The translations under genes and the position numbers were made by a program. 64,000 nt of DNA from contig CM060732.1 in the NCBI GenBank assembly GCA_030704615.1, positions 26,040,001 through 26,104,000 on the forward strand. The letters run 5' to 3'. How positions within the stretch are numbered: position 1 is the first letter of the stretch; every line of letters starts with the position of its first letter. This DNA comes from Takakia lepidozioides. Taxonomy: Eukaryota > Plantae > Bryophyta. Below, one piece after another: positions 5,791-64,000 of the stretch. The notes under the pieces are model-generated. The model ran no database searches. It was given only the letters and a program-made list of their open reading frames with translations, and was not told the origin of the DNA.

Positions 5791-5904
5791 TGAGTACATT
5801 CAGCAGGGCTTATACGCATGATAGGGGGATGATATGGTTGCTTGAAAATACCCTTAACAGTTAATTGTCTGCCTGTGTGACTTCGTGAACTTGTGTACAA
5901 TGCA

Positions 5905-17900: not shown

Positions 17901-18279
17901 ATAAGCGACCTGTGGTTGAAGGAACCATCCGGGGGATTTGCAACATGCCACGCAGTTGTGATAGAAGGAATGACGTGCGCAACTCCGAAGATCCAGTCAT
18001 GATGCCCGGCACCCCTGCAGGAACAGTACACATCCGCAGACTACACGCGTCATGCAGAAACAGTACACAGCAGCAAACTACACGCGCAAGTGCAGCATAC
18101 GCGCGCGCAAAGAGGATCAAATCGCCAAAAATCCTAAATTTCAATACATCCACTGCGTTCATCTCACAGACCAAAATGGCGGGGATGTGCATGGCCGTTG
18201 GATGGGGGAGGACGACATAGATGAACAGAATGATAGCCACGTGCAAACAGCCCTGCCATTTGACATGTGGAAAGGGATC

Positions 18280-19900: not shown

Positions 19901-20499
19901 GACATAGGGCGTCCAGCTCGCAGTCGTCTCTCACAACAAACGCCATAGCCGCAGCCCGACGAGGCTGCTGGAGCGGGGTTCCCGGCTGTACCTCGCGGGC
20001 CGTACCCCTCAGCTCACACGCTTGCAATAAAATCAAGCCACATCCATATTGGGACCGCTGAGAAACTAGGGTACTCTCTTCTTAACCCAGCTAGATCATT
20101 TTTGTCAAAATGGTGCAGCAAATAGGGTCACCACCACACACAAAGCAACTGGGACAAAATATGGAAAGAAGTATGGAGAAAGGATCGGGCAGCCAAAATA
20201 TCAGGATTTCTTTGGAAACTAGCCAAGTTCTGCCTGTCAGATAGAGAACGCATGAAGACCAACCACAATGTACTCTTTGCAATTAAAAAACGGAGTCCAT
20301 TGAACATTCATTGCTGTTCTGCAATATGTCAACAAGGATCTGGAGGATGGTGCTTGGCTTCTACTCCCATTGGGGATCTTTTCCATCTCTACCTTCTCCC
20401 CTCCTTCTGCTTCTCAATTTCTTGCCTGGCCATGCTCAAAGTAACTGCCCTATCTGGGCACCTTTGAGAGCACATACTCTATGAAATTTATGGAAAGCC

Positions 20500-33188: not shown

Positions 33189-33611
33189 ATGTTCCGAGGA
33201 AGGAGTCTGGGCGGCTGCATTGAGGTCGACAACGAGGTGCATGCATTTGCTGTACAAGACAACTTACATCCACAAATCAAGGAAATCTATGCTGAGATAA
33301 AGAGATTGTCTGGGGAAATGGAGGAGGCGGGGTATGTGCCTGACACATGCTTTGTTTTGCATGATGTGGAGGAGGAGCGAAAGGAGATTTCTCTTGGCCA
33401 CCACAGTGAGAAACTGGCAATTGCATTCGGGCTCATCAGCACACCACCTGGGACACCTATCCGGGTTATCAAGAACCTTAGGGTGTGTGGTGACTGCCAT
33501 ACAGCTGCCAAGTTCATCTCAAAGCTAGTGGGTCGTGTTGTCATTGTACGGGATTCCAACCGCTTTCACCACTTCCAAGATGGTGTTTGTTCGTGTGGGG
33601 ACTATTGGTGA
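33189..33611 (+). CDS. E+/DYW cytidine-deaminase domain of a PPR RNA-editing factor, without an upstream PPR array
   Basis: [57 protein letters not shown]. Confidence 0.92.
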
Positions 33612-40400: not shown

Positions 40401-42780
40401 TCCTATCAGAAATGTCCAGTCTATGGAGTCGAAAGCCTTTTCAAAATCTAGCATAAGAAATGCCAAAGGTTGATTATTCACCTGAGCTCTGTGCAGGGCC
40501 TCATGTGCCAGAAGGATGTTGTCTAGAATCATGCGATCCTTGAGAAAGCCTGTTTGGTTTTTCCTTATCATTTTTGACAACAGAGGTTGCAGCCTCAATG
40601 CAAGGGCCTTTGCTATAATTTTGTAGGTGGAGTTCAACAAAGTAATAGGGCGGTAGTTGGCCATATCCTCCCTATGTCCCTTCTTGAAAATGAGAGTGAC
40701 AAGTCCTTCAGAAATCTGTGATGGCATAATCTTCTTTTGGAGAATGTCATTGGCCATGAGTAGGTATTCTTCCCCAAGGGTCTGCCACATTGCTTTGAAT
40801 AGCTCTACAGGGAGGCCATCAAGGCCTGGAGATTTCTGGGATGCCATGGATTCCACCGCTTTGCCGAGTTCCTCCATGGAGAATGGTTCAGCCAAAATTG
40901 CTTTGTCCCTTTGCGAGATTGCGTAGGGAATGTGCTGCAGCAGGGTTGTTGTGGCCTGGTCTTTTAGGAGAGATGGATTTTTTTTTTGAAAGAGGTTTTT
41001 GAAGTAACCAGCGGCCACAGAAGCCATTGTCCTGGGGTTGTCCACCAGCAGACCTGTGGCTGAATCCCGCAGGGCCGGAACAAGAGTTGTAGTTCGCCTT
41101 TGAGCTGTTTTGATGAAGAAGTATTTATTCATCTTTTCGCCTTTGAGTGACCAGTTGACTCATGCCTTGATCCTCATGAACTCTTCTTTGGCATGTAACA
41201 GTAGGGACAAATTTTGTTTGGCAGTTTTGTATGAAAACAATGTGTAGGGGCTCTCATGTCCAGTCTGCAATTGATACTGGCAAACCTCCAGGCACTTCGT
41301 AAGGGCTTTCTGCCTCCTGATGGTAGCCTCTGCTTTTTCCCTTGAGATTGCCTGGCATTTGTTCCTGAGGATTTGGAGCTTTGCCAGGGAGCGCACTGTT
41401 GGCGAGGTGAAAGGTGCTTCCGCAGTCGCCCATGTCTGTTGCAGAGTTTGAATGACGTCCCGGTCTTTGAGGAATGTGGGGTTGAGTTTGAAGAAGCCCC
41501 GACCCTTCACTCTGGAGCCGGGGGTGCTTAGCATCATGTGGACGGAGGCGTGATCAAAACCTGGCTGTATGGGCTGGAGTGGCACTTGCTTAGACCAAGA
41601 CACCAGAGTTGTTGTGTAGTAAAATCTGTCCAGACGTGCTTGGCAGAGGTTTGGCGGATCCCTGTTGTTTGTCCAAGTGAATTTGAGCTCTCTTTGTTTT
41701 GGCGTTGTGACATCCAATAGGCCCACAGTCATGCAAAGTGAGTCCCATGAGTTCATTTCTGCTGTCATTTCTGCTGTCAATATGCCATGTGCAGCTTGTC
41801 CCAGCCTGTCTGTATCCTCCTCCACCATGTTGAAATCTCCCCCCTGCTATCCAGTGTTGGATGTTAGTGTGCTGCAGCATCTTGTCCCTGATGTGATCCC
41901 ACACAGCCACCCTTTCTTCTTCCCCATTTGGTACATAGATGTTAATGACACCCACCAACCAGCATTTGTTGTAGAGAAGGGGAGAGCAAAATAGCAATGC
42001 CTCCTCTCGAGTCTATTATTGTAGGGTTCCAAAAAGCAATGGCAGAGGATTGTTAGCATGATCTGATGGCCATAGAGGATTGAAGAGAAATTTTGTGCGT
42101 CTATCTGTTGAAGGTAAAGCTGAGACCCATTTGAATCCTTTTGGGAGGGGAAGCAAGTGCGGAAGTTTCCAGGTGTACACTGTTCTAGACCTCTTCCTTT
42201 TGCTATTGTAGTTGATGGGGAGATATTGGTTTGCATTGTCCTTGTGGATGGAGAGGTTTGGGATTTTTAGACTAAGTATTTTTTTTGGCCTTAAAAGAGG
42301 ATTGATGGTGTAAAGGTAAAGGCATCAGTGGCTGTTAGGCTCTAAGGATGAGGAGGTCTGGTTTTTTGTAAAAGAAGACAGCCTGGTCCTAAGAAAGAAT
42401 CTGAGAAAAAAAAAAAAGTGCCGACGAGGATGATGGGAAAGGCTGTGGAGTCCCACCAGCCTGGCAGGAGTTTTTGGTGAGTTGGATGACTGTCCAGCAT
42501 GAGGGTCCAAACCCTTTTGTTGTCAGTAGCATGAGGGACACAGAAACAGAGAGGGGAGCAAGCATGGGAGGACATGCTTACCATTGGAGGCGATTCGATG
42601 GTCTCCTCTGGGGGGGATGCTAGAGTGTGAGCCCAGGAGCCTGGCGTGAGCCCAGGACATGTGGCATGATTTTGGGAAAGATGCGGCGTCTATTTCCGTG
42701 GAAGAGGACCCATTACCGCAGAAACACATCTTCATCCATATTTACCCTGCAACCCCAAACAGAAACCCCAACCCTTGTCA
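37487..42780 (-). mobile_element. L1-clade LINE: ORF2 (APE endonuclease, RT, zf-RVT), frameshifted, with 3' UTR and (AAAAT)n tail
   Basis: EN: INIYVPN, GG/DFN, FTW, ARLDRFY, FDH. RT: KSPGLDG, NYRPITLLN, LDFEKAFD, YADD. zf-RVT: PAKISGFLW..CTLC..ETIEHCLLSC. Tail at 37487-37506. Confidence 0.93.
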
Positions 42781-43219: not shown

Positions 43220-46018
43220 CTCAAGTACATCCGTAGGTGGTGTCAACACTGCTAATGCTACCACCTGAATCTGCTGAACTGCTAGGAGTACTGCTACCAC
43301 CTGAAACTGCGGCACTATCATCTATGAAGACCTTTGCGCGGAGGTGCCTGAGCGTCTTCCTGGAACTCCAACGCAAGGGTGGGGGAGAAAGCACAGCTGC
43401 ATGCACACGAGCAATGCCTTCCGCGTAGTCGGGAAGGACATAAATAGGAGGTGGGCTCCAGCACAAGTCCCTCAAGTATATGGAAGACAGGGGCAACGGG
43501 ATTGCGTTGACATTCCTGCAATCAGAAATGCACCATTTGGGTAATAATCAGACAACAGAAGGGGACGCGACAGAGAATATACACAGGGATGAAATAGACA
43601 GAAAATGAACTTACTCACATGAAAAGTCATTGTCCAGCTCCTTGTCGTCTCCGTCGAGGATATCAATTTGCGCAGTGACATCCTTCACACTGGAGGTAGA
43701 CGAGCCCCCTTGCAACTCGGCGAGTAGGCCAGTGAAAATATCTGCATCTCCTTCCATACCAAACAAGTGCCTGCCACCTGCCTTGCAAGCATGGTAAGAA
43801 GCGCCTGCAAGAGACAGAATGATGGAATTAGAGTTTTAGAATATTGAGTAAAGGACGTGCAGAAGAAAAGAAATCGATGACAAAGGCAAGAAGAGAAACA
43901 TGTGCCGAGAGTGAGATCTATGATGCGGGCCCTGGTCGAGAACAACTCTCAATGATCGTTTGGATAAAAGCCGGGTTTTTTTCACGGGCCCCTCTCCAAG
44001 GCGTTCCATTTGGCTTTCGCAAACATACGTTGGAGTCCACATAGTTGTAGTGCATGTCATCGACGACAGGATCGAACCTCTCGTTTATGAAACATCCTCC
44101 CCCATGAAGCTCGAACTCAACCACTGTGGTGGGAGTCAAGAGTGGATGTACCATCACGAGACAGACGGCCTCAAATAGACGGGTCTGCGATGAAGAGGTC
44201 AATAATTAGTGAGAAATGTTTCATAGCACATATGGGTGGGAGTGCAGACCCATTCCAGATGGAACGGGTTCAGAGTCATTGCTCATGCACCGCCAAAACT
44301 GAGTGCGCTGAAGCACTCAATTCAGGCAGTGCGAACAACATGACTTCATAACAGTCAGTACAGTGGAACTTCAACAGAGAAGGCATAAAAATAAAGTATT
44401 TGAAACGTACCTTCTGCCCTGGGCAATCCCCCTTCGTCAGATATAGGCTGTGACACAATTCCAGGTCTTGATAATCCGCATCCCCGACGCTTTCAAGTAG
44501 CTTGCCAGCTCCCGGCAACATCTCATCGTGACAGATTGTATGATAACAAGAACCCCTGCATCGGAAAGGAAAAACTTGCAAAATGAAAACACCCAACTCC
44601 AATACCTCTCGTCAAATTTGTTCCATGTTGGGCAGGTGTCAATGGGCAGAATATCCGGGACTGGATGCCCGTCCGGAATGTCCACAATAACCATCTCCGA
44701 AGCAAACGGTTTCAGTGCACCATTCACCCAAGATTCCTTTCCCCTCCATGCCTGCAAGCAATATAGCGTGTAAGAAGGGAAAGATGTTTTATAAGCGACC
44801 TTTCTAATCCGAGCAAAAATAAAACAAAGAAAACAAAACTCAAACACATGCATGATAATTGCTTACCGATTGGAGAAAAGCACAGAGCTTGTCCCACGTT
44901 TTGGAAGGATCACCACTGTAACTTGACTTCCTTGTCTCCATCATGGCCAGGAACCCGTCGTTTACCAGCTCGCACATGCCCGGAAAAATGATTCTAGATG
45001 GGTGCTCCATTGCATCGTAGGGCTCTTTAAGACCCTTTTTCTTTCGGTCAGGCTTTTTGGCTGGAGGTGGGGTCTGCAGTGGCCCCGGTTGCACCACGGA
45101 CTCCATCTCATTCTCATTCGGAGTGTTTTTCTGCCCCTTGTCCTTTCTAGGCTTGACTGGCGTATTTTGTGCAAGAGGCTCTTTCTCAGCCAATATCCTC
45201 AAGTTTCTCTTGTGCAACTACTTGTCCATCAGAGGGGCCAAGGCCTCTGCATTGTCGTTTTGATTTCGGGTCACAAGCTCAGACCAAGGGCATCCAGACC
45301 GTGGGATATCCATATACCAGCAGCAGTCTCGAAGATGCGAGGTCCCGTAATCCTTCAAAATCCCTGCAGTGTACATTGTCTGAGCGTTGGATGGATCACA
45401 CCATAGGTCAATAAAGTGCGGGTGTCGACTCAGGTTCTGGCCTGGAATGAGAACGTTTTTGATGTACCTACACAATCAAAACAAAGGGAATATTAGTGAG
45501 TGGGGAAAGTGTGAGATAATTGTTTAAGGACCCCTTGACTGAGTGCGCCAGCGCACTCAATTTTTGGTCTGTCCAATCAGGCCCTACTTACAAGCCAGGG
45601 CAGGTGTGGCTCAGTACAGGATCGAATATTCGTATGTACAATGAGAGCTTGGGAGACACAGAAGTGCCCACCCCTTTACTAAGTGTGTCAGCAACAACAG
45701 TTTTGGGCCTGTTTATTCAAAAGAGCAAGGCTGCAACAAAATCGAAACTTCGTGAGAAAAGAAAGAAGGGTGGGAAAAGAGTGTCAAGACGAACCTGTAT
45801 AGAACCCTCTTCATGGGCTGTTCTGATCCATGCTGTTGCTCGAAGTCGTTAGTGCGCGAGATGCCTCCCTCTTTGGCGAACTCCCTGAAGAAGCAAGTGC
45901 CGAAGCAAGCTGCTTTCCACTGGCGGACGTAGTCTTCTAGAGTATCCGTCGGTGGAGTCATAGTTATCTTGTAATCGTTCAGCTGTTTCTCCAGAACCAG
46001 CTGTGCCCGAGCCTCTAT
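43220..46018 (-). pseudogene. Multi-exon gene with a C-terminal beta-class amino (N4C/N6A) DNA methyltransferase-like domain; frameshifted
   Basis: Exon 44751-44411 MVIVDIPDG...FFLSDAGVLVII (motif IV/VI-like). Exon 44184-43900 PWRGAREKNPAFIQTIIESCSRPG/RIIDLTLGT. Exon from 43804 ASYHACKAGGRHLFGMEGDADIF (motifs I-II, SAM binding). Confidence 0.65.
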
Positions 46019-47074
46019 CTGCGCAAGAACAGTTCTACAATTCAGAGAAAAGATGTTGAAGAAGAGTAAGTGACTTTTCCCGGTGCAATGCAGATTTGCA
46101 GTGGAAATGGAAAGGGGAGAGGAAAAAACCTGTGCCCAGTAATTGAATTGTAGGAGTAGTCTAGTGGTAAGGACGTAGAATGTGTCGTGATGCACCGCGG
46201 GATCAAATCGCGATGCACTGTTGTTTTGCTTTTCTTTTTTTTCTTTTCTCCCTGCGATCTGTCTCCCGTGGGCTCTCTTTTCCCTCCTCCCGCGCCCTTC
46301 CGTGTCAGCTAGGTCTTAGCAGGCCATGTTTCAATCTCTGCTTTTTGGTGGGAAGCAGATGGTATTCAGAGAAATTTGTGAAGGGGCAATGGGAGAAGGA
46401 GGAATGCATGGTGGAATGGGAAGCATATTATGCCTGTGTCTCAGTACTCTCCCTCTCTAGTTCTCAAAGTTTTCATCTCTTGGTACCTTTATCACAATTT
46501 CTAGTGGTTTTTATGTACACTTTGTTGGTTTATTGCACTATGAAATGTAGGGGTTTCATGTAGTTAATGGTTCCAGTAGTTGTGCTTGTGGTTTCACATG
46601 GGTGCCTGACATGCGCAGACCGTCACCTCACCAGCAGATGTCCATGTGTGCTTGGTTGAGGTGAATGGTGACGATGGCATCAGTGGTGGCGGGGATGCGA
46701 TGGAGCGACAGTGAAGGTGTGGGGAGGCATAGGCAGCTTACTCCTTTTGTTGTTCTTTGGACCTACTTTAGCAGGCTTCAGATTTTGGTGATGTATTTGT
46801 CTGCATGAACTACACATCTCCTGATTGTGTGTGCAATCTTCAGGTGGGCGCCATACTTGCTCTTTGAGCAAGGATTGTAGTCAACGAAATTACTTTCAAA
46901 GTACAAGTCCTGCAAGCCTCAAGACACCATTTTATCTCTCTGTCTCAAGTGTCTCCTCTCCTGGATTCGAATATTCAATGAGAGATAATCTTAGAGCTAG
47001 TAGATAGATCAAGGTTGCTGTTTGTGGAAGCTTGAGGCCCCACCCCATAGCTGTGGCACACAAATGAGGAGGTA

Positions 47075-48300
47075 TTTCACATGGTCCTTCCAAGTTATGC
47101 TATCCCGACCCTCCAAGACCAAGACGCCTGAGGGCAAGACCTCTCGAACCCTCAAAAGAACACGTCCTGCAGTCACATCCAAGGTCGTAGGAGCAATCTG
47201 CTGCAGATAGACGTAGTCATTAGGGTTGAATCTCCGAACCCCAGGACAATAGCCCCCACCACGTATGGTAGCATACCTCAACGTATCACGGTGTTGTGCA
47301 ATGGCAAGGTTCTCAAAAGCCATTGGCATGACTTTCTTGAACAACTCTGCACGCTGCTCACATGCAATGCCCACACATCCGGATCGTCAAGGTTAAGAAG
47401 TGTAGCAGCTTCTCTGCGAATGGATGTAGGAAAATCCGGCTCTTGGCCAAAGAGAATAAAGTATGGTGAGAAGGAGGCAAGTGATGCTTGCTTGCTGAAC
47501 CTGTAGCCCATGGCTAACCAGGGTAACTGAAGGTCCCAATCTCCTAGGTGTCCCTTCTGCAAGCCATACTTGCGCAAACCCCTCTTTATTGTCTGAACAA
47601 CTCTCTCTCTGCCAAGCCATCGGCCTTAGGATGATCCCGAGAAGTGGTGCGGTGGTCTATCAAGGCCTTGTCACACAAAGCCTGAAACTCCCCCAAGAAC
47701 TCTCTCCCTTGGTCCGTGAGTACCTCAGCTGGAGCACCGAATCGGCTAAGCACACAATCCAAGAATGCATACGCAGCTCCCTCACTAGCCTTATCAGGCA
47801 ATGGAACCAATTCAATCCACTTAGAGAAGTGCTCCACCATCACCAACACGTACTTGTTGTGGCGCATGGTCAGTGGCAACGGCCCTGCGAAGTCAAGACT
47901 CCACCTGTAGCCCAATCCCATGATCGGAAGAGGGTGCAATTGTGGAGTAGGGACGTTGAATGAAGCACGCACCCTGTCACACACCATGTACCTAGCCACA
48001 AATTGTTGCACCTCTGTGTGCATACCATGCCACCAATATTGCCCCTGCAGTAGACTATGAGTGCGTCGCACCCCAAAATGCCCCAACTCCTCATGGGCAT
48101 GCCGCACTAACCGTGCCCGCTGTGTTGGGTGAGGCACAATCCTCACTCGACCATCCTCCCACACTCGGAGCAGGTGTGTCCCCTCCCACTTGAACCTCTT
48201 GGCTCGTTGTAGGATCCGATCCCTGTCCTTGGCAGTCACAGTGGCTGCAGTGTCTCCAGTGCGGAGGTAGTCCAACACAACTGAATCCTCATGTATATCT
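47075..48300 (-). pseudogene. Integrase (zinc-binding and DDE core), frameshifted and 3'-truncated
   Basis: ORFs 48416-47586, 47577-47278, 47374-47009: HEELGHFG, WSLDFAGP, VLTDQGREF, DGLAER, DWDLQLPW. Confidence 0.92.
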
Positions 48301-48379
48301 TTGGCGCCACCTTGCTCATTGCTGGCCTCAGGGTCCTCAGACACTTGATCATCTTTGTTGCAGGTCCAACCTGACCTTC

Positions 48380-49867
48380 CGCTGCCAAGATACACAGAAA
48401 TGCAGATGCATGCCATCCGGGCACCATCTCCTCGTCCGTCTCACCATGCCACCGAGCTCCAGTGTCATCCTGCTGGCTCGTGCATGGATTGCGACTCAAC
48501 CCATCTGCATTGCGATTGACCAAACCCGGTCGATGCACCACCTGAAAGTCATACTCTTGAAGGATGAGTGCCCACCGTGCAAGCTTCCCCGTAAGCTTGT
48601 CTGACTCCATCAACCACTTGAGTGGTTGGTGATCCGTGACAAGGGTGAAGAGATTGTCGTATAGATAGCACCTGAAGTGTGCCACGGCCCACACTGCAGC
48701 TAAGCATTCTCCCTCATATGAGCTATACTTAGACTCAGCAGCATTGTTCGAGCGGCTAGCGTAAGCCACTACGAACTCTCTTCCCTCATCATCCACCTGT
48801 GTGAGCACCGCTCCAAGCCCCAATATGCTCCAATCTGTATGCAGCTGAAAAGGACGCCCCCTAATAGGTCGTCTCAAGATGGGCGCCGAGGTCAACCTCG
48901 CCTTGAGCTCTTGAAAAGCTTGTTCTTGCTCATCTTCCCACTGCCACTCGTGGTCCACCTTGGTCAGCTTGGTTAGAGCCTTTGCAATGGCACTAAATCC
49001 CTTAACAAACCGTCTGTAATAGTTTGCTAACCCCATGAAAGCTCGAACTCGGCTCACCTCCGTGGGGCGTGGAACCTGTGCAATGGACTCTACCTTAGTC
49101 TGTTGTACCCCCAATCCTCCAGGATATATCATGTGACCCAGATACTCAATCTGGTTGTGGAAAAACTTGCACTTTCCCGGATGTAACTTCAATCCGTGCG
49201 TCCTCAAGCGCTCAAATACCCCCTGAAGGTGTCTCTCATGCTCCTCCACCGTAGCACTAAAGATGATGATGTCATCTATGTAGCACCGAGCAAACTCCAC
49301 CCCTCCTAGAATCCTGTCCATGACCCTTTGAAACTCAGCAGGAGCGTTTTTAAGCCCAAATGGTAAGAACTGCCACTGGTATAGGCAATCCTTCCCGTGC
49401 TCATTGATCCCCCAGAATGCCGTCTTTTGCTTATCCGCCTCCTTGATCGGCAACTGGTGATATCCGGATCGTAAATCCAACGTGCTAAAGACCTTAGAAT
49501 GCCCAATGGCATCAAAGATCTCCTCTGGTGTCGGCATGGCATACCTATCGGACTTGGTCTGACGATTTACAGGCCGGTAATCACCGCACATACGTCTCTC
49601 CGTCCAATTGCCATAGACATCCTTCTTGGCTGGCATCACTGTGGCTGAAGCATACTCTCCACCAAAGAGCTCCACCAAACCTGCCTCCCAAAGATCATGA
49701 GTTCTCATCTGAATCAAGGACCTCTCCATGTCACTGTATCTATAGGGTCTCCGAAAGATTGGCGTGTCAATGGCCAATTCAATGCGAATCTCTTGACCCT
49801 TCAGTGCTCCCAAGTCCTTCAAACTGAAGGCAAAGCAATTCCTATAAGCCCTCAGGAACCGCCGCAT
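48380..49867 (-). CDS. Reverse transcriptase and RNase H of the Ty3/gypsy element
   Basis: RMCGDYRPVN, FSTLDLRSGYHQ, PFGLKNAPAEFQR, CYIDDII, FMGLANYYRRF, LHTDWS, WALILQEYDF. Confidence 0.97.
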
Positions 49868-50279
49868 ACGTTGTCTCTCTCCTCCGGTGACAATGGGTCC
49901 AATGTCAGGCTCCCAATTGTCCTCCGTAACTGCAACCTTAAGTCCAGTGGGCTTAGAGGTAGAGGACGCGTCCCGTGGTTGCTATGCTGCAACCTCTTGA
50001 GCAGTACTCCCTTCCTGCTCAGTCAATGACAAGGCCTCATCCTACCCCATCATCTCATCATTGAGAACCTCCTCAACCCGAGAAGAATCCCCAACCTCAT
50101 CCATCACAGCTGCCTTGGCTGCCAACTCCCTCTGGACCTCGAGCACCTCCCACGTGTGCCATGGATGTCTACACCCCGTGGTCCTCACCGGCTCGCCCCC
50201 ACTCGCTGCCTGTACCGTCTCAGTAGGCAGAGAGACCGTCAAGGGAAGTGCACTCCGCACTCTACGTTGCTCAGCCATA

Positions 50280-51240
50280 GCCAAGCTGATAATCCAGGTC
50301 AAGCAATTGAGATCCATTGCTTGCCCTAACACCTGACGACGTAATGCCTCAGAAAGAGAAGGCACCGCCGTGGTCCCAGTGGAAAACCCCATAGCCCGCT
50401 CTCGCTCGTCGGCATTAGGCTCCACTAACTGTTGCAACTGAGCATCCCATAGGAGGCCAGGTCCACCATCCCGAAAAGCATGGGATCCTGGGAAGCTGAG
50501 CAGTGTAGGTAATGCTGCTTGTGGTTGACCCACCCTGTTGACCACTGCCAAAGGCGAACGGTCATCGTGTCTCACACGTTGAGACTGCCTCCCTGTGTCC
50601 AAAATACTGTCCACTATGAGGTGTGTTGGCTGCTGCACCCCATCAAATGCACGCTTGAGCAGTGCGGGTGGCATCAAGTTAGTCCACCATAGCCGTGGAC
50701 GATGAGCCCGTGATCCCACTGCAGCTCCATCCAGCAGCACTGCTGACCCAAGCCACGACCGGACTTGATGCACACTGGCCATCACCCTGGCCCGAGAATC
50801 GCCCATCAGTGGCACATTCTCCAAGATGTATGCTGGCGATACAACTTGATGAAGCTGCAAGTGGCGCAAAATCCGTACCATCTCCCAAAACAGACCCATC
50901 CTTGAGTCTCGCAATCCATTGCCATGCCCGGCTGATGAATGCCCTTGGCAGGGCCAACCTGCCACTACCAGATCAATGGAGCCAACCTGCTCCAAATCCG
51001 GCGCCCCCAGCAACGAAATGTCTGCTGGCAAGGCTTGTTGGTATCCACGAACTGCAGACACTGGCAACAAAGTAGGGTACTGCTGTACCAACTGAGCAAC
51101 ATGGCGCAGTGAGACGCGTCGTGCAGTCTCATCCCTCTCCACATACAGGTAACGCCTTACCCGCACACCTGCATGTAGCATAGCAGCCAATCCGGTGCTG
51201 ATCCCGCCAAACAAGTCCACAAGGCAAATGCCTTCATCCG
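50280..51240 (-). CDS. DNMT3-like C5-cytosine DNA methyltransferase domain within retrotransposon pol
   Basis: Motif I VDLFGGISTG, II YVERD, IV VAGWPCQG, VI ILENV, VIII AHRPRLWWTN, IX ERERAMGF, X RRQVLGQAM; no stops in the domain. Confidence 0.93.
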
Positions 51241-51579
51241 GATACTGCCACACAATAGGTGTGGTATCCAATGGTGACAACTGAGGTGGTCCTGGTGCAA
51301 TACCCGCACTCTCCTCCTCTCCTGATGGTACAAAAGCCTCTACCCAGGCTTGTTGCACCCATCGATCAGCAACCTGCTGCAAATCCTTGCTCGTACCCCA
51401 CAATGGAGTGTGAGCAACCATGGCAGACAACTCCGCCAAACCATGCATGTCATCCTGCTCTGCTAGAGGTGGCACATCCTCTGCATGGGCATTGCCTTCC
51501 AGCAACTCTCCAGGCCAACTAACTGCAGCTGTAAAGGTGGCTAGTGTTGGCATCTTGCCCCGTTGGGCAGCCGTAATAC

Positions 51580-51960
51580 CCCCAATGAATGTCACAGGGA
51601 GCTGTGCACGACGACCATCCCCTGACTGCCATCCGGGCCTGTAGAATGCTGACTCCTCCCAAAAGTCCAAGGTGAAGCCCATGGGGTATAACACTGCCCC
51701 ACCAACGAGGACATCGTAAGAGACCACGTCTGTCATAATGGCCTTGGCTCGCATTACTGAGCCATCGATAGGATGATCCGGCTGCAGTCTAATGGCCAAC
51801 TGATGCCGTGTCATGCCCCGAGCCTGCTCTGATCCTCCCAGAGATGTCTGTATCTGGAAAGGACAAGGCTCCATATCCGCCTCCATGATGCCCAAACCTG
51901 CAATAGCAGCTCTGCCCAACATCAGTGGCTAAGCTCCCGAGTCCAACAAGACCCGCAGTG
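51580..51960 (-). pseudogene. Retrotransposon aspartic protease
   Basis: LRVLLDSGA*PLMLG (Asp at 51943-51941, TAG at 51931-51929)...YDVLVGGAVL. Confidence 0.85.
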
Positions 51961-52139
51961 GCCGGTACTTCTTGCCTACCGGTCCACTCAAAGAGAAAAT
52001 GCCATCCTGGTTGTCTAACAAGACAACTCCAGGTGTCACCATGGCGCGCTCAAAGGCTGGCCCAGCTGGCAGCTCCGTCAACCTGGCAGCTGCAGCTTGC
52101 CATGGCGCAGCCGTCCCTCTGCCACTACACCTTCCAGTA

Positions 52140-54130
52140 ACTCCGCAGAAGATGAAGTGACCTCCCCACTCTCACAGAGTGTTGCTGCTAGTCTGAACAC
52201 TGCAACTGGTCTTATCCCTGGTGTCGCAATCATGGTTGCCGAGAACAGTGGGGCTTGACACACAGAGGTGGCTGCCCCCAACAACACACCGGCTGCACTA
52301 GCCTTGTCAGCAGGTGTCAGTGCTGCACGTGTAGCTCTCCCCAATGGCATAGAAACCTCCGCCTCGGTAACAGTCGGGCGAGAACTAGGTGCCATGGATG
52401 GCGTTGACACTGTCTCCGCCAAGGTGAATGACTGAGGCAGCCTCGCCTGACGGCTTGCCTCCCCACGTTGTGGATCCAACTCCACCTCTGCACCTCGTGG
52501 CTCAGGAACTCGTGCTGCTCCTCGAGTCACGGCTGCAGCAGACTCCAACTGCTCTAGTGGTAGTGCTGCTCTGCACATGAATCCCATGCCTCCCATATCT
52601 CCTCCCTCAGGAACAGGAGGTGGACCATCTCGCCTGGGAGCCGGTACCGCCTGAGCTGTAGCCATGGCAGCGAGCCTCTGCTCTAGCTGCTGAAGCCAGT
52701 TGGCCATGCCTTGGTCAACACCCTGACCTCCGCGTCCTTGGCCATGTTGAGCTTGCCCTTGGCCTGCACCTCGTGCCCGACCACCTCGTCCTCTCTGGGT
52801 TGGTCCACCTCACCCCCGGCCACCATTGTTCCCTTGGAACTGACCTGGGCGCAACTCAGGATGCAAGTCATAACACTGGGCATCTCCATGCCCATACTTG
52901 CCACAATGCCCACACTGCAACTGTGCAGGCTGTGTTTGTGCCGGCCTTTTGCCACTCTCTGGGCAATCTCTCTTGACATGGGGTCCTCCACATGTCCAAC
53001 ATATCACCCCTGGTTGCTGTTGGTCTGCAAAAGATGCCACGGGCCACTGCACCTGAGGTCCCCTGTAAGCTCCATAGAACTTGGGTTGGGAAACCTTGCC
53101 CCCCTGACCACGCTGTTGGGCAATCCCTTGTGCCTGTGGGCTGGCAGTTGCGCCTCGTGCAGGCATGTCCTTGCCAAACCCAATGGTAACAACTCAGTCC
53201 TCCACCATGTTGAGCTCAATCCGCTCAGCCAGCAGAAACACATCTGCTAATGTGGGTTGGGCTGCTTGTAACAGGGTTGCATCTCGCACCCTTCTCCTGA
53301 GCTCCTTGTCCAAAATTCCATACCAGAACTAGATTGCCAGAGCTTCAGTAACCCCTTGGGTCACACTTATCAAGCGCCTCATACGAGTGTAGGCCTCTCG
53401 CAAGCTCTCACTGGGTTTGCACTGTAAGTCTTGCAAACTTCCCAGCTTCTTTGTCCGTACACCTTGGTATTTCCTCCGCAACTCCTGGAAGAACTCCACC
53501 ACCGGGTTGAATCTAGGCACATGTGTTGTAGTCGTGGCAGGAGGAGTAGTAGCACCTTTTGAACTGGTACCACCTGCAGAAGTACCGGCACTACTTGTTC
53601 CACTACTAGTGCTGGCAGTGGGAGATATTGGTACTGATGCAGCTACTGGTCGCGTCGTGCCTCGAGTAATGGAGACGTAGTCAGGTGACCAATACATCCT
53701 CTACTCCTCAATCTCTGCTTCATGTCCTTGCCTGAACTCGTGGTAATCGTCCATAGGCGGGCCTTCCAAATGCTGGAACAGTCCCTTCCACGCCATGAAT
53801 GGTGTGAATAGCTGTGGATTGTGCATCTGCTGCAAATCACACCAGTTGTCGAACTCCTGGATAAAGTCATCCAACTCGATTGTGCCCACAGCTCCAGAGT
53901 ACCTACGAGGCCCCTTGATAGCTCCATACATCTCCTCCATGTCGTCCCACAACAATGGCGAATGAAACTGCACACCTGTTGATTAAGCCTCCGAGTCTGT
54001 GTCTGACTCTGCACTAGTTGAGGGTGGAGGTGAAGGTGGTCTGAAACAAACACCTCGTCTGGTGAACCCACTCTCACTACTACTGCCTGTAGCCGTACTC
54101 CCCTCAGAACCCCTGGATAACTCCGTGGTG
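52140..54130 (-). pseudogene. Gag-like protein with two CCHC-type knuckles and an RG/Q-rich region
   Basis: One reading frame from 53973 to about 52140 with four stops; CWTCGGPHVKRDC and CGHCGKYGHGDAQC; PSESLREAYTRMRRL. Confidence 0.85.
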
Positions 54131-54892
54131 ACACTCACAATGTGCACCTCCCCCACGTGACACTATAAGGCTCTATTACTAATTCTAATAGTGACACGGG
54201 TAGGCACCTGTTGCAGTTTAAGGGTCATATCCCAGTGGCTCAGGGCACCTGCACCTGCATCCACCGCAAGAACTCCTATGGTTGGCTGGTCATCAACCCA
54301 GTCTCACCATAGAAGAAACACTGGTGGTCTTGCTGGTCATCACTCCAGCCTCACCACCGACAACATACTCTAGGATTGACCGGTGATCAAATCCGGCCTA
54401 ATCCCTATGAAAGCAAGCGCCCACACAAAACCAACATGGCGCACAGTCAAGCATGTAGGTGTTGGGGGGGATCCAAACACAAGAAATCAAAACATCAACA
54501 CCCCCACACCAAAATCCAGCTGCAATGCTGATCCTGCAGAATAGCCCAGCCCAAAACCCCGGACTGACTGGCCTCCACCAAGAGAGGCTTTGGCAACTAC
54601 GAGTACAAGGTAATGAAAATAGTACAGAGATGGAGGGGAAGAATAGAAGCCCGCCCAAGCAAGATCTAATCCTGATCTATGCTATCAACTGCCAGACTTC
54701 TCTCAAAGTGCCTCGCTCTGCATGATGGTAAGGTGTAGGAGGTATATCTATGTCCAGAAACCTGCCACTAACCTTGTCCCAAGCTACAGTAGCTCGCTCT
54801 AACCAACCCTCCTCCTCTTTCTGCCAGGTAGAGACAAAGCAATACTCCCCTATCTCCCGCTCACTGAACACTAAAGAAAACAAAGGTAGGGT

Positions 54893-55426
54893 CTAATAGT
54901 CTCTCAACTCGAAAGCTTTGAGACGGTTGCGGGTGTCCTCATTGCGAATGACTGCATCTCCTTCAAGCAAAACAAACTTATCATTGCTAATGAACCCCCG
55001 CTCGTGGTTGCCTTGTGCAGAGCGTATCCGGCTGCAACCAAGTCTGATTGCACAAACTTGTGCAGCTCCTGCTCCTCTGCTCCAGTACACCACGGCCTTG
55101 TGGCTGAACACCTTGGTCCCTGGGGCTGTCTTTGGTTGTGTTCCAAGCCTAGCTTTCACCCACTTTGGTATTTCACCTACAGCTGCAGAACTGCTGGCTC
55201 CAACAGAGTTCTGACTATCCAAAGCAACATTGAGGCCCTCAACGCCAACTACAGCAGTTTGTTGTCTACTGCTAATGCCTGGCTCCCAGTATGCAATCAA
55301 CTCATCCAACTGTTCTCCACTCAAATCAGTCTGAGTTCCTTGGGAAACATAAATCATGTCCCCTTGTGTGCACAGGCTAAGAGACGAGACCTGCCCTTCA
55401 ATTACCTCCTCATTTCCCCCAGCCAT
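54893..55426 (-). CDS. Unknown 177-aa ORF upstream of gag, same orientation
   Basis: Intact ATG-to-stop ORF about 0.9 kb 5' of gag; no recognised domain. Confidence 0.45.
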   Translation of the reverse strand: MAGGNEEVIEGQVSSLSLCTQGDMIYVSQGTQTDLSGEQLDELIAYWEPGISSRQQTAVVGVEGLNVALDSQNSVGASSSAAVGEIPKWVKARLGTQPKTAPGTKVFSHKAVVYWSRGAGAAQVCAIRLGCSRIRSAQGNHERGFISNDKFVLLEGDAVIRNEDTRNRLKAFELRDY

Positions 55427-55519
55427 ACAAGGAGAACATCCACAAATTTGTCTCTCATATAGACCAGAACAGGTTCTAGAAACAGAATTGTGGATCTTTC
55501 ATGGCACACTCACACTCTA

Positions 55520-55790
55520 AAAATTCCATATATTTTTAGCAGAGTCCCAAAAACAAAAACCAGGTCTAGATAGGTAGATATCCCCTTTGTGCAGCTATCC
55601 CCTCAAGAACTGAGTCAAACGGAGCTCATTTGACAAAGATATGACCAACCAAGCTCTTTAAACATAACACATTTTATTATTATTATTATTTTTATTTTTA
55701 TATAAGACAAAACAAATACAAGGAAAACTCTATTTTCAATACTTGTCTTGGTTCCCTGTTCCCTGGTTTCTTGTTCCCTGGTTCCCAGTG
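55520..55790 (-). repeat. Dispersed repeat, inverted copy of 676-885; candidate 5' leader or LTR piece of the Ty3 element
   Basis: Reverse-complement match with an AT-rich indel. Confidence 0.85.
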
Positions 55791-55799
55791 ACTGGCTCT

Positions 55800-56620
55800 C
55801 CTCCAGTCGAGATCCGTAGCTATGCTGAGCCTTAATCCTTTGCACCAATATTCCCAACAAAAGCAGGAACACTTACAATGCAACCCCGGAAAGCACCAGA
55901 TCAGGCAGATCGGAAATATCTGATCGGCTCAGCACTATAGTGCCATGGGCACATAAACCAGATTGTAGGAGCAGCCAGAGGAAATGCAGGTTATGCCAGC
56001 ATCATCCAGACCATCCCTGCATCTTGGATATGCATCCTCCAGCAAGGGCCGTTGCCTCCATTGCCCGACACTTGGTTACATGCTCAGCCAAACCTAATCA
56101 GGTCATTTCCGTGACAGATTTCAGCGACATTCAAATCACTAGGCTCGCTATGCACTACTGCCCTCAATCAAACATCCTGCAAAGCTGGCTGTCTTTCTCT
56201 GGCAGATCGCAAATAGAATTCTAAAGGTAGGGTGTTGGCTTCAATTCACCCGTGCACTGCTCTGCACATGCTGCTCGCTTGGGGTTTCAGAATCCCTGGA
56301 ACACTGCCTACTACAATGCAACATACCTTCAAAAAATCTGACCCAAGATTCACTGGCTGCTCGGACACTGGCATGACCAAACCTCTTTAACTCCAATCAG
56401 CTGCTACTGAATTACGATCCCAATGCCTAGTTGAGCTGCCAGTCTCGCATTCACTGTCCCCACCAAGGCAGCTGCATGAATACTATGAATACCATCACAG
56501 CTCCCATCTTCCACTCTAACCGGTTGGATGAGTACGGCCTTGAGGTCTGGTCAAGGCCACCAACTACACCTGGGTTGTCCCAGTTCTCTGTTGCCCAGTT
56601 CGGGTCACCTTGCTGATGCA
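55800..56620 (+). mobile_element. Decayed L1 ORF2 3' fragment (zf-RVT)
   Basis: HPAKLAVFLWQIANRILKVG..LCTCCSLGVSESLEHCLLQC at about 56173-56320. Confidence 0.75.
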
Positions 56621-58499: not shown

Positions 58500-59355
58500 G
58501 CGTGTCTACCCTATAACCCCCCAAATGGATCGATCTCACTGGCTGCGGCTTATTGGGCGCCCCTAATGCCATCAATAAGGCCGAGTTCTTCAAATGTGGA
58601 TGTTTTCTGATTTGGATGAAATATTGCGCACATGAGGCATGCCATCGCCCTATCATACACGGATTTTGCCTTCTTCAAAACGAAAACATACATAACGTCA
58701 GGAACGCAATGTCCGCGTTCATCGGCGTTGGATATTTCCCGGGTTCGGCACTCAATGCACTGTCCGGGTTCATGTTGTGGAACGCCGCAAAATGCAAATT
58801 GGATTGCAATATCCAAGACGGCGCCGTCTTTTCCCGGTGGTGTGACACTGACAAAATAAACAGTTTTGTTCCCTTCTCCATCAATTTGGCAACTGCCCAA
58901 TTGTTTTGGCTGTGTGGTTCAATACCCTCACAAGTTATTGGTTAATGTGTGGGGCCAGTTGTACAACTGCCTCTTGCCTTAGCAAACACTTTTGGGATTT
59001 GGCAATCGCCTCCGGAAGGTTTTTACCTGGCCATGTCGCACAGTTGTATTGGTACTCACCATCGTATGTTCACCACATGGCTTCTCCTAATGACGTGGCC
59101 TTCGCCGAGTTTCAGTATACTGAAGAGCCTTGCCCTTTCAGTGCCTCAGTTGAAGATAATGGTTTTGTTGTGGTGGAGGAGCATGTTCTGGCAGCAAGGT
59201 TCAAGCTTGACATTGGTTGTGTTACTGTCGAGAAAGAGATCTATGACTTGGAGGGAAACGTTCAAAGAACTTGTTCCAGAAACTGCATGTTGCAGAGAAA
59301 CACAAGGAATGGAGAGTTCTTCCTGGAAAATATCGTGTGTTCCGAAGCAAAATGA
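58500..59355 (+). pseudogene. Cys/His-rich coding region upstream of the transposase, probably part of the MULE
   Basis: Overlapping ORFs 58553-58945 and 58906-59355 joined by a frameshift, co-oriented with the transposase. Confidence 0.4.
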
Positions 59356-59599
59356 GACAATCCGGTGGCTCCATTGTCACTCCTGGGACAGCTGCCTCTG
59401 TCGTTCAAGGAAAGCGGAATGTGACTGTGAAGCAGGAGGACACCACTTCAACAACTTTTGTGACACTGTCGGATTCCTCGGATGATGAATTGGCAGAAAT
59501 ACTGGCTCCCATGAACAGTCTTCCTGAAGGGGACGTCGATGTTCAAGAAATCGTTAGCGTCATCCCACATCTGAAAGCATTGTCAGGAAAACCATGATC

Positions 59600-62270
59600 C
59601 AAAAACGAGATCGCAGGGATACTGTGGGATTCATTCACAACAAAAAGGGTTCCTTTCCTTCCACCTTCCTTCGACAGTGACATCCTCTTTGATCTGAATC
59701 CAACAACTTGTGTTGGGGGCCTCTCAGGTCTCTTGCAAGGAATGGATAAAAAGCATGATGGACATCCATGGTGCAGAACCAAAACGTCCAATATCCACAA
59801 CGATGTAAACTTGACATTCAGAAGGAGCGTTTGTGTGGGGCATCTGAGATGTGTGAATGCAAGTTGTCAGCGTTTCATGAAGAGCGGTGCTAAAAATGAG
59901 AGTGAGTGGGAAGGACTCTCCGACAATCCTTTTATCCCAGGTTGTGCCCCACCGTCTGCCAGTACATTTGTTTGTAAGTTCTGCAAGGTGGCCCCCTCCT
60001 GCATTGCACATTGTCCTGCTCGCATGTACTACGTTACTCACCGTTGCAAAACCATGACTCGAGCCTACATTCAATTTGGGACTCACGACCATCCTGTGTC
60101 TCACGGCGATTGCAGAGATAGTGTGGAGTTGGCGCGTGGGCTTGTCGTGGAGGAGTTTGCAAAGTCCCCTTCAGCCAAACCATCTGCCATAGCGCTGGCT
60201 GCCAGCAAAAATTTCCTAGAGAGGCACATTCTTGGGCAGGGAAGCGAATGCAGCTCAAGACTTGAGGGGGCTTCTTTGGATGCAGTGATGGATCACTTCT
60301 CCGTGTTGAGCTCCCCCAATATTAGGAATCAGGTGAATGCATTGAGAGTGCGCGGTGGAAACACAGGGTCCATCAACAGCATTATGGAGCTCAAGCGCAT
60401 AAGTCAATATGACTTTATCCAATCTAGCATCTTCCCGGGTCAGGGGTCTTCAAAGGTTTACTTGTTCAAGATGTCTACGGTGGGCGAGGCCAGACGTATG
60501 CAACAAGGGGTGGATTTGGAGAAAGCCTGGATGATGTTCGATCATTGCAAACGAGTGAAGGGCTGGACAACCATGTCTTGCCATGTTTACGACCCAAACT
60601 ACCAAAGAATAATGACAATTGCCATCTGTGACATGCAGTTTGAAGATACAGAGTCCCAGATGATAATGTGGAATTGTTTGCTTTCAGTCATGGAGTCCAA
60701 TGGACATACAAGCATAAATTTCAACGGGTTTATGGCGGATAGTGCACAGGCTAACTTCAACGCTGTGCGCCGAGTTTTTGGATCTGGTGATCCAAAGGTA
60801 CCCATGCCTAATAGGGAACGCACATGTCTATTCCACTGGACTCAGTCCCTGCAGAAACATACGAAGAGGTGCATCAGAAGAGATCTGCAGGCGGAGCATA
60901 TAAGGCTCTGCTTCATGTACAAGAATGCGACTACAATGGAAGAGGCTGAGACCATGTACCAGACAGTGAGAGCATGGTGGTTCTCGTCAGGGGCTACTGA
61001 TCAGGACGGTGTCAAAGAATTGGAAGACTGGTTGGTCTTTTCGCACTTCAGATACATACAATGGGGGCTTTCATGACTACTGTAAGCTGTCTTTCACCTC
61101 TGCAATCCCTTGTATGTGCCCAATTTCTTTCCTTGTTCCCAGAACAGTCCGCGCTTGCATGAATGACGCTCTTTCATTTTCCTTTCACAGGACATGTCCC
61201 TTGAAACATTGCGGACATGCCGTCCTGCAATCTGGCAGAAAGCGTTCTCGCCGCCTGGAAGCAGCAATCTGGCAAAGCAGGAAGAGATCTGTAAATTGCT
61301 ACAACAGATGATCTGGTACGAGCTCTAACCCAGCAAACAAGATATCGTGACTTCCTCAGGGGGCGATGTGGGGGCAAGGGACCAAATACAGCAGAGTTGA
61401 TGCTGAGGGCTGCAAGAAGGTCCGGGGATCCAACGAAGATGGCAAAGGCAGTGAACAAGTGCACAATGGGCTCGCCTCTCCAATCAAGGGAGCCCCATCA
61501 AGAAGGAGAGGAAAGGTTCGGGACTTGCAAACGCAAGCTAAATACACCTCCAGGATCAGATGGGGATTCACATCGCCATGACAGAGACAACTTCTCTGTA
61601 CCCAAGATTTTTCCACTACAAAGCATGGCGTCTAGTAGGAAAGAGGCTGCTGGTGGCTTCCTCTTCCACAGTGCAACCCCTGTAATTGCGGGTTTCTAGC
61701 AGGACCACAGGGGGGCAGTGCAGGAGTCACCTTGTGCTGACTCCGAATGGCACATCGAGCGAACTACTCCAGGGTCTAGAGTTGGCTGCACTGCAGTGAG
61801 GGCCATTAGTTATGAAAAGTGTAAGTCCAAGATAGCCAAAGGCTTGGCGGGTACTCCAGCTCCGACGTTCATAGGTTTGATTCGGCCATATATGTCAAAG
61901 GAGTCGAAGATGCACAAATTCTGGTTCTGCCCGGACGATATGGCTCGCTGTGTGAATGGTACCGTCCGCGACTCCTGCATTGCTAAGCCTCCCCCACCAA
62001 CCATTTGGCTAGTGCGAGTGGGAACCTCCCTAACAGCACTGGAGTTTGGCAAGTTGGAGGACGCTGGCTTTCGTCTGCACCGATTTGTGGCGTCGACTCT
62101 TGGTGGCCTTGCTGCTATGGTGCCTCCTCTAGACGATACTTCGCATCCCACGAGAAGGAATGGCAAAACAGTGCATTGGGTGGCTTTGGGGCCTGATCAC
62201 GATGCGAAGGTGGAATCGGCCAGACTACTTCAGGCTCGGGTAACAGGAACTATGGAAGTACCTTCATCAT
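59600..62270 (+). mobile_element. Mutator-superfamily transposase with GCM/WRKY-like zinc DNA-binding domain, disrupted and 3'-truncated
   Basis: DGHPW..CVGHLRCVNASC..CKFC..CPAR..GTHDHP; catalytic region MFDHCKR, FMADSAQAN, CLFHW and, after an intron at about 61082-61189, PSCNLAES. Confidence 0.85.
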
Positions 62271-62274
62271 CTGG

Positions 62275-62720
62275 TTTTTTTTTCACCTCTTCTTCTATAA
62301 CAGAAACCTGAAGAAGTTTGACAATGATAGAGCTCAACTTTTTTTTCACCTCTTCTTCACAAACAAAGCCTAAATAAGCTTGAAGATGGTCATCTGTCAA
62401 ATTTTCACCTCATCTACATTAATAAAAACCATTGCCTGTTTCACAATGAATGGTCATATTTTGGGGCCTGTTCTTGCCCATCCTCATTATTTTAATCCTC
62501 TCCTTCAATATTTCATCCATCCATCATTCATCCAGCATGGATGAAATACTGGAAACGTCAGATAGCTTGACAATGAGCATCCAAACTTTTCTTGCCTCTT
62601 GTTCATGCAAGAATCCCTAAGTAAGATTCATGATGACTCACCCAACCTTTTATTTCACCTCTTCTTCAATAAGAAAACCTTAGTAACTTTCACAATGACC
62701 ATTCCATGTTTTCTATACCT
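62275..62720. repeat. Degenerate ~60-bp tandem repeat (TTTCACCTCTTCTTC core)
   Basis: Cores at about 62281, 62344, 62403 and 62653, variant near 62590. Confidence 0.7.
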
Positions 62721-62729: not shown

Positions 62730-64000
62730 AGCGCTATAACTGCTTCCACGACAATAGGACCCTCTCTAAACAGAGGACTCGGATATGGGGCTTGCTTCTT
62801 CCTCCACTAAACCCCTGGGCTCACGCTTAGAGGGCAAAGCGTGAGCCGAGCTCCTGGGCTCACGCGGCTAGGCTCACACCGTAGCTGCGCTCGTCCTCTG
62901 GTAGCAGGAAAGTGATGGAGGTGTTAGCCACCGCATTGGAGGAGATGTTAAACTGATTTTCCCCCGCCAGTACTATCTCCCTGTTCGTGTTTGGCTGCAA
63001 CAGGGGCTGTTTTCCTTTCTCCTTCAGCATTTCGTAATGTTCGTCCACCCATTTAAGACCTTGCTCGAAGATCTGCTTGGTGCGAGCCTATTCATTTGGA
63101 TCCTTGACCCTGCAGGAGAGAAAGTACTTGTACACCCAAATCCACGAGTTATGGGCACCCGTGGTATCCAGACCTCTACTGTATATCACTGGCATGACAT
63201 GGACAATCGCTAAATCAGGATGAGAGTCATTGTTAACTACCATGATGCCAATGTGTTGAATGTGATTTAAAGTGAGGTTCAAATTAGGGAAGAACTCCTG
63301 GAGCACCTCTAAGGTGAGTGCGAGCATGATATCTCTTTCCTTTCCTACTCCAAATTGAAGGGCAATGGCCTCTGTAACCCATGCTGTCTGAAACCCTTCC
63401 TTGATATTTGAGAGGAAAAATTTGGTGTAGTCATCAATGAAGTTGTACAGAAGTGGGGTGACACAGATTGCCGCCTTCTCCCTTGCGTAGTTTGAACCCG
63501 GTGCCCATCCAAGTAGGGGCTTTCATTTGAAGGAGTGAAGTTCCAGGAAAGAGATTGCCAGGCTGCCACTGTCTAGTTGTTGGAGGTCGGATTCTGTGAA
63601 GGGAAAGGAGGCCCAAGCCTCCATGATTCTTACAGGGAAGAAGCCAGAGCTAGAGGGTCTTTTGGGCGAGGTGGGGGCCGACAATTCTACACTTCTTCTC
63701 CTTTTTTTGAGGTGTGCAGCTTGTCATTGACTGTGATGTATTCGTTGGTGTCCATTGCCATAGCCTCCGGCACTTGTAGATTTTGACATTGATTTGAGAT
63801 GCTTTGCAGAGGCTGCGAAGAGCCTTCATCTTTCCTTGTGAATTTTGCGCCTGGGCAGTCTGCCTTGACATGTCCTTCAGCATTGCACCGAAAGTAGATA
63901 ACAGCAAGTACCTCCTCCTTTATGGCCACTACTATGAACGAGTCATCCAGAGTTGGTAACTTGATGGAGCTGCCGATTTTGGCATTATCTGGCATGAGGA
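62730..64000 (-). mobile_element. L1-type ORF1 remnant (CCHC knuckle), running off the window
   Basis: IKLPTLDDSFIV..VI(Y)FRCNAEGHVKADC followed by a low-complexity basic tail. Confidence 0.6.

Follow-up and report, generated by a model that had tools for sequence, protein, structure and literature searches.

Amino-methyltransferases (MTases) of the beta class, in which catalytic motif IV precedes motif I of the S-adenosylmethionine (SAM)-binding half, include the bacterial enzymes M.CcrM, M.BceJIV, M1.HpyAVI, M.RsrI, M1.MboII and M.PvuII (PF01555). The canonical mechanism is described as depending on two features of the motif IV consensus [DNSH]PP[YFW], its aromatic residue and its Pro-Pro carbonyl (PMC4738411). 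Land plants are thought to have few amino-MTases, and the moss and Selaginella entries in the portion of the supplement considered are of the MT-A70 type (PMC4738411). Two eukaryotic beta-class cases, MpDN4MT1 of Marchantia (motif IV TSPPY; 10.1101/2021.02.12.428880) and the intron-containing N4CMT of bdelloids (SPPY; PMC8885841), have been described as pairs of tandem or allelic genes (10.1101/2021.02.12.428880, PMC8885841). Here we analyse a 64,000-nucleotide stretch of the moss Takakia lepidozioides (GCA_030704615.1, contig CM060732.1, positions 26,040,001 to 26,104,000; hereafter the window, numbered from its first nucleotide), whose minus strand holds a broken copy of an MTase-like gene. 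The sequences suggest a conserved gene carried by a transposon, likely a Mutator-related element. We propose, at roughly even chances, that the intact protein is a catalytically dead, sequence-specific DNA-binding accessory factor of this DNA transposon, most likely directed against host silencing.

With the bacterial enzymes the family shares the permuted motif order, the predicted fold and similarity in the SAM half, but its motif IV reads [DEQ]xP[EDN] rather than [DS]PPY, its motif I lacks DPF, and it has spliceosomal introns, an extra N-terminal domain and a C-terminal tail. Like MpDN4MT1a/b and N4CMT it is eukaryotic and beta-class, and N4CMT also contains introns; those proteins keep TSPPY or SPPY and are active host enzymes, whereas the present family lacks S-P-P-Y, is multi-copy, lies beside a transposase and is likely transposon-carried (MpDN4MT1 is set apart by its description). 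No Marchantia-named protein was among the family hits. By its motif IV the family appears to fall outside the active PF01555 enzymes and, lacking SPPY, outside the eukaryotic N4-methylcytosine (4mC) enzymes. The N6A-MTase domain of the DIRS1 retrotransposon is also transposon-borne and described as a likely inactive amino-MTase, but it is PCIF1-like (group 2) and part of a retrotransposon polyprotein (PMC4738411), whereas the present family is predicted to be of the permuted group 1 type and is a separate spliced gene in a likely DNA transposon. KnitGypsy-Dnmt3, from a Gypsy element of the alga Klebsormidium, is likewise described as a mobile DNA methyltransferase domain under purifying selection, but it is a C5 MTase whose motifs are intact, forms part of a retrotransposon pol and belongs to an unrelated fold class (PMC5890265); a similar element is nested in the Takakia element. 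VANC of VANDAL and MURB of MuDR are likewise second genes within Mutator-type elements, although only the role proposed here is analogous, and 'methyl' gave 0 matches in the main text of a survey of Mutator-like elements (MULEs; PMC6446971).

Relatives were collected with phmmer from 1.84 billion representatives; the query was the X-read exon C–D stretch of the window gene, which returned 43 hits; P0036, a repeat-rich chance hit, was excluded from alignment A2 and from the motif counts. The preliminary description of the window, made from its letters, had proposed a beta-class Rossmann SAM-MTase fold with motif IV ahead of motif I, and the relatives bear this out. A profile of nine sequences (A1) aligned colinearly with CcrM over positions 263-484 (E 0.0014), setting DLiiadvP on DLIFADPPY, that is, the D-x-P-[ED] of the family on DPPY. 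The AlphaFold model of the relative P0026 had a pLDDT of mostly 80-95 over residues ~290-540, and ESM Atlas assigned its residues 300-560 to PF01555 at 0.95. Its best Foldseek matches were all beta-class MTases, CcrM first (E 9.7e-12), with M.BceJIV, M1.HpyAVI, M.RsrI, M1.MboII, N4CMT and M.PvuII among the others. VIA comparison with CcrM gave a Z of 19.4 and a root-mean-square deviation of 3.4 over 236 residues; across beta-class amino-MTases Z was 16-19, with 18.0 for N4CMT (8s9m). We conclude that the relatives are predicted to adopt the beta-class amino-MTase fold with motif IV ahead of motif I. The seven exon pieces of the window copy had no Pfam match at a meaningful E-value; the fold is assigned through relatives. 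PF01555 was listed at E < 1 for four of the 43 proteins, and the best of them scored 20.8 bits (E 4e-4), below the gathering score of 26.7 bits. PDB sequence searches with single proteins gave nothing significant, and the N-terminal domain, in models of low confidence, had no assignable fold.

Motif IV was counted in the 34 of 43 rows of A2 with letters in all five columns, the window peptide and one non-overlapping row having been removed; one of the 34 is misaligned. Position 2 was proline in 0/34 and position 4 aromatic in 0/34, the latter being E in 16 rows and D in 10. At position 1 we counted D 26 times, E 5 times and Q twice (acidic or amide in 33/34), the lone S belonging to the misaligned row, and the proline at position 3 was kept in 30/34. 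The family consensus is [DEQ]-[ILVY]-P-[EDN]-G (DIPD in the window), not [DNSH]PP[YFW]. Five of six metagenome loci span the motif and none of the five has PPY; no 4mC-type SPPY was seen among the aligned relatives. Motif I takes the form D-[LVW]-x-x-[GSNA]-T-G (D 14/14, T 13/14, final G 11/14), with the PF of DPF in 0/14 (the consensus cited in the preliminary description is DPFxGSG). The motif II Glu is retained in relatives wherever it is covered, and WN downstream of motif IV is present in 32/32. The motif IV check suggested in the preliminary description came out uniformly among the aligned relatives, none keeping the aromatic or PP, and its 4mC-enzyme framing is not supported: position 1 is D, E or Q and never the S of TSPPY or SPPY, and motifs IV and I are remodelled family-wide. 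On these alignments the unusual motif IV characterizes the family as a whole and does not stem from decay of the window copy.

Among the relatives L001-L003, which carry DIPE, dN/dS was 0.163, 0.109 and 0.139 over 196 codons (Fisher p 4e-8 or lower). Because the motif change is old, family-wide and selected, it points to a working protein, and the conserved protein is probably not a standard methylase. Inactive amino-MTase copies have described precedents in METTL14 and the DIRS1 MTase (PMC4738411). An active enzyme with a remodelled site, marking the element's own DNA with N6-methyladenine (6mA), 4mC or another SAM-derived group in the way suggested for retrotransposons with DNA methyltransferases, would instead explain the strong purifying selection, the conserved first and third positions of motif IV and the retained motif I Asp, final Gly and motif II Glu; the invariant downstream W could stand in for the lost aromatic, and active retrotransposon DNA methyltransferases are on record (PMC5890265). 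We nevertheless consider such activity unlikely: the target-base-stacking aromatic, PP and DPF are absent from every row counted, and the SAM half alone scores against prokaryotic profiles.

Divergent from the MTase-like gene lies a GCM-domain, IS256/Mutator-fold DDE transposase gene (59100..62311, plus strand), itself decayed (stop at 59595, frame change near 59250, stop at 61697). Its relatives numbered 103 hits. With one of them, P0068, Foldseek returned ISCth4 (IS256/Mutator; E 3.6e-4) at ranks 1-4 and GCM 1odh at prob 0.99; Pfam gave PF00872 alone, in one of 44 members (E 0.18). The models place the protein among IS256/Mutator-type DDE transposases, with a predicted WRKY-GCM1-fold DNA-binding domain, a domain that has been linked to Mutator-type transposases (PMC1702500). 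A GTDB scan with profile A3 also found the transposase in two contigs of metagenome-assembled genomes, L007 and L008, filed as cyanobacterial and alphaproteobacterial; L007 has an intron-like interruption in the transposase at the same place as the window, and both are probably plant contamination.

In an unbiased scan of all 11-mers with at least three base types, only a single 11-mer in the window, GTGAGCCCAGG, paired in tandem on both strands (4 occurrences vs 0.59 expected), and it brackets both the MTase-like gene and the transposase. The putative left end of the transposon (42623..42657, plus strand; presumed to the base) is an imperfect terminal inverted repeat (TIR) with two tandem units (42627, 42646) and TA before it; the putative right end (62813..62881, minus strand) has two inverted units (62814, 62853) in an imperfect terminal repeat, with TA after it. 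The TIRs are short (~35 bp), imperfect and made of repeated 11-bp units, and some MULE groups are described with TIRs of 20-40 bp (PMC6446971). The best boundaries, 42623-62881, have TA on either side within a GCTAGC site. The 8-11-bp target-site duplication described as a MULE hallmark (PMC6446971) was not found at this one old insertion, where it could have decayed. Minus-strand sequence encodes a zinc knuckle (E 0.002) in the right flank and an endonuclease, a reverse transcriptase (RT) and zf-RVT in the left; to judge by these domains the flanks resemble the halves of a single long interspersed nuclear element (LINE), as expected if the insertion had split it. No long frame spans the junction in an empty-site reading-frame test. 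That the gene has a transposase as neighbour and lies between inverted end motifs agrees with its earlier description as transposon-borne.

Contig depths of gene and transposase were 28-69 vs 22-33 in run X2, 8-12 vs 5-9 in X5 and 15-28 vs 15-28 in X4, and two X2 contigs exit the window at 46141 and 58136 with their unmatched ends facing each other. CpG depletion (gene 0.63, transposase 0.56 vs flanks 0.23-0.40) was not used, age or coding constraint explaining it equally. The gene might also be a passenger, either a captured host-gene copy in the Pack-MULE style or a separate repeat whose closeness to the transposase is coincidental; the two genes stand apart by 12 kb of other insertions, and no long target duplication was found. 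We regard this as improbable, given the unique inverted motif pair around both genes, flanks that read as halves of one LINE, the similar contig depths, and intact frames in other copies with dN/dS near 0.13, which misfit decaying captured fragments.

Our preferred reading, an anti-silencing accessory protein, starts from one element of ~20.3 kb (42623-62881, nested insertions included) whose insertion point would be a TA site within a pre-existing LINE. Methyl transfer would have been lost with the remodelling of motif IV, since [DNSH]PP[YFW] no longer has its first proline or the aromatic that stacks the base. The CcrM-type scaffold would still grip DNA after this catalytic loss and would bind the element's own repeated motifs, namely the end units and intronic palindromes; once bound, it would shield the element from host silencing so that it can still be expressed or move, much as VANC acts on VANDAL elements. 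VANC is described as binding noncoding regions of its own VANDAL element and removing silent marks (PMC10398659), and extra open reading frames (ORFs) of MULEs with helper or anti-silencing roles are known (PMC6446971, PMC10398659). The palindrome TGAGTG..CACTCA in intron 3 (44295..44326, palindrome 44300-44319) is a candidate protein-binding site, and its partner lies in intron 1 (45533..45564, palindrome 45540-45559). The window holds two such palindromes vs 0.05 expected, for a pattern picked after being seen, and they are possible binding sites or hairpins.

Alternatively, the protein could be a non-catalytic, MURB-like transposition cofactor, its CcrM-type scaffold binding or opening the element ends or the target for the transposase. 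Its position as a second, divergent gene within the element and the short ends of repeated units would suit this role, which might also account for the atypical TA target; mudrB is apparently required for integration (PMC6446971), and a CcrM dimer is described as opening a strand-separation bubble (PMC10406627). We doubt this account, since L007 and L008 carry the transposase without an MTase-like gene in the stretches of DNA covered, and transposase relatives are more numerous (103 vs 43 hits, in different databases).

Several points weigh against an anti-silencing pseudoenzyme encoded by a single element. The fold prediction was made for the relative P0026 instead of the broken protein encoded in the window; the motif counts lean toward proteins found by a DIPD-bearing query; an altered catalytic site could also make use of the conserved D, WN and SAM-side residues; L002, one of the three dN/dS sequences, has an in-frame stop; and the anti-silencing role is proposed by analogy alone. 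At the ends of the element, no 3-10-bp duplication was found (left ends 42612-42629, right 62868-62894), only 2-bp options of which TA was best; the first two terminal bases differ between the ends, and their end-to-end local alignment was marginal (score 43 vs best shuffle 41). Among the contigs listed, none bridges the MTase-like gene and the transposase, which would also suit a passenger, and 0/8 fetched loci carry both genes, seven loci being shorter than 4.2 kb. Because none of the listed contigs bridges the two genes and contig depth does not equal copy number, their linkage is drawn from one locus. Plant range was read from only two organism-named relatives.

More tentatively still, a TA-targeting GCM-Mutator clade of seed-free plants may have repurposed a bacterial-type beta-class MTase, as either a non-canonical D-x-P-E/D...W enzyme that labels the DNA of the element itself or a base-flipping pseudoenzyme acting against 5-methylcytosine (5mC), an idea to which we give less than even chances. 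Should the pseudoenzyme block or reverse 5mC silencing sequence-specifically, it would be a second independent route to VANC-like anti-silencing. Carriage of such a multi-copy, selected and motif-remodelled MTase-like protein by a DNA transposon would represent a new kind of cargo in the conflict with host DNA methylation. A sequence-specific anti-silencing protein would have evolved in parallel to VANC and might serve as a scaffold for epigenome targeting; an active family member would instead be an amino-MTase that dispenses with the canonical aromatic motif. The fold alone is no safe ground for calling 4mC or 6mA enzymes in plant genomes. With two annotated full-length copies in Ceratodon purpureus, the family is directly testable.

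The window copy fits one consistent model with six GT-AG introns (minus strand: 46129-46035; 45794-45468, intron 1; 44866-44752, intron 2; 44410-44185, intron 3; 43899-43805, intron 4; 43614-43516), whose phases agree if one missing base is granted to each of two exons. The model has six exons (A-F) and the stub of a seventh, against the three exons previously proposed; the DIPD, WRGAREK, DLTLGT and GME peptides of that proposal were all recovered on the minus strand, as were its junctions 44411/44184 and 43900/43804, which delimit GT..AG introns of 226 and 95 nt. Upstream lies the exon stub (46130..46141), contigs of four runs (X2, X4, X5, X8) ceasing to match at 46141. Exon A (45795..46034) encodes N-terminal domain sequence, and its 3' end, at intron 1, is the point where two Ceratodon gene models diverge. 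Exon B (44867..45467) encodes the conserved N-terminal domain with its HLR.CCWY block, a low-complexity linker and the start of the MTase-like domain; exon C (44411..44751) the remodelled motif IV DIPD (44682-44671) and the invariant downstream WN (TWN 44628-44620); exon D (43900..44184) the WRGAREK block (43998-43978) and the motif I strand DLTLGT (43918-43901); and exon E (43615..43804) the end of motif I, the motif II acidic residue (GME 43760-43752) and an acidic linker. The last, exon F (43221..43515), encodes a C-terminal tail with an LPxYAEGIAR block as in the Ceratodon proteins and ends at the stop TGA 43223-43221. In the tail (exon F ~43330-43300, minus strand; also P0046, L004 and L006) an aromatic-hydrophobic-D-x-E/S-A block is conserved, recalling F[FIL]DxEA, which we take to be a motif of chromatin and replication factors.

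The window exons are colinear with profile A1, and the X-read spliced domain scored 165.7 bits against a profile of nine relatives that excluded the window sequence, vs a best of -0.7 bits among 200 shuffles, 84 of which gave any score. Exon C by itself gave no match in a word-based search. Support for the splicing proposed earlier comes from the GT-AG borders and from introns of relatives: intron 4 is GT-AG at an identical codon and phase in four of six metagenome loci, with its donor in 6/6, and intron 3 occupies an identical place in one of the six (L004), being absent from the other loci that span the site. On the transcript side the proposal fared less well: in two runs presumed to be RNA, no contig joint was exactly equal to a predicted intron. 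One X6 joint ends at 44866, beside the donor of intron 2.

As it stands in the window the gene is a pseudogene: it has two frameshifts and one stop, and its 5' end is lost. The one-base frameshifts lie near 44450 (exon C) and near 43929 (exon D), both in the MTase-like domain; without correction of the former, the DIPD frame hits TGA 44439-44437 ahead of the donor. A premature TAG stands in exon B (45220-45218), and because similarity to other copies stops at 46141, this copy lacks the 5' part of the gene. The preliminary description had corrected a single frameshift; with a further frameshift and a stop, this copy is itself a pseudogene. In run X1 the base missing near 43929 is present in 6 contigs and that near 44450 in 9; a 1.9-kb contig of run X5 keeps both, and at 45220 all summed contig depth in three runs reads through the TAG position. 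Since contigs of other copies are without them, the three point breaks are peculiar to the window copy. Run X1 gave 1294 contigs on the 3.4-kb gene in four identity bands (328/401/369/196) and hence many divergent copies, and contigs of other copies have intact reading frames.

Organism names were available for 2 of 20 relatives looked up, P0008 and its cluster mate P0046, both from Ceratodon purpureus. These proteins match the layout of the window gene (N-terminal domain, low-complexity linker, MTase-like domain, acidic linker, LPxYAEGIAR tail); their locus tags (M758_9G084500 and M758_3G218200) fall on chromosomes 9 and 3, and 758/758 aligned residues are identical, which together with the many X1 contigs on the gene speaks for mobility. 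No named protein was among the transposase relatives, which precluded a Ceratodon locus-tag check of linkage. With moss relatives, the likely host range of the element is seed-free plants. A profile search with A1 returned only two proteins, both already known, and IMG/VR held relatives of neither the MTase-like gene nor the transposase. Because phage and plasmid tblastn gave at most a weak match to the SAM half (E 0.3) and BFVD matches were generic beta-class MTases of 11-16% identity, no donor can be named. Full-text literature searches, judged from listings and abstract starts and with Repbase-type catalogues outside their scope, found no description of the family; the element may stand in transposon catalogues with its fold unnoticed.

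Between the MTase-like gene and the transposase lies a Gypsy-type long terminal repeat retrotransposon (~46400..55800, minus strand) with a C5 cytosine MTase domain in pol, which would be an insertion into the element and not part of it. The domain (50045-51928, minus strand; PF00145 E 3.6e-12; DLFGG 51217, GWPCQG 50959, ENV 50821) is placed upstream of RT-RNaseH-integrase, and summed contig depth on the Gypsy was ~100-fold above that on the gene and the transposase. Here such a Gypsy element occurs in a land plant, a placement to which the E+/DYW deaminase gene at 33189-33611 is the main pointer, and it is apparently very abundant. Also inside the putative transposon is an unassigned ORF with a Cys/His-rich end (56867-57433, minus strand), whose positions 56867-57254 match an RNA-guessed contig of depth 112; it may be the element's third gene or another insertion.

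Immediately before the truncated 5' end of the gene, a 38-bp sequence (46304-46341) recurs inverted at 11282-11319 with 95% identity and has extremely high summed contig depth, being a piece of a very abundant repeat. Elsewhere in the window, an ORF for a Ulp1-type peptidase (5889-6887, plus strand; PF02902 E 2.3e-6) is preceded by unassigned ORFs (1395-3637, plus strand); Ulp1 genes are often carried in plant Mutator-like elements. A ~200-bp stretch at 678-861 matches 55561-55768 at 79%. ORF pieces at 17555-18336 (minus strand) had no Pfam match, lie beside a GC-rich tandem-like region (18400-20000) and are possibly another transposon gene. The C-terminus of a pentatricopeptide repeat E+/DYW deaminase is encoded at 33189-33611 (plus strand).

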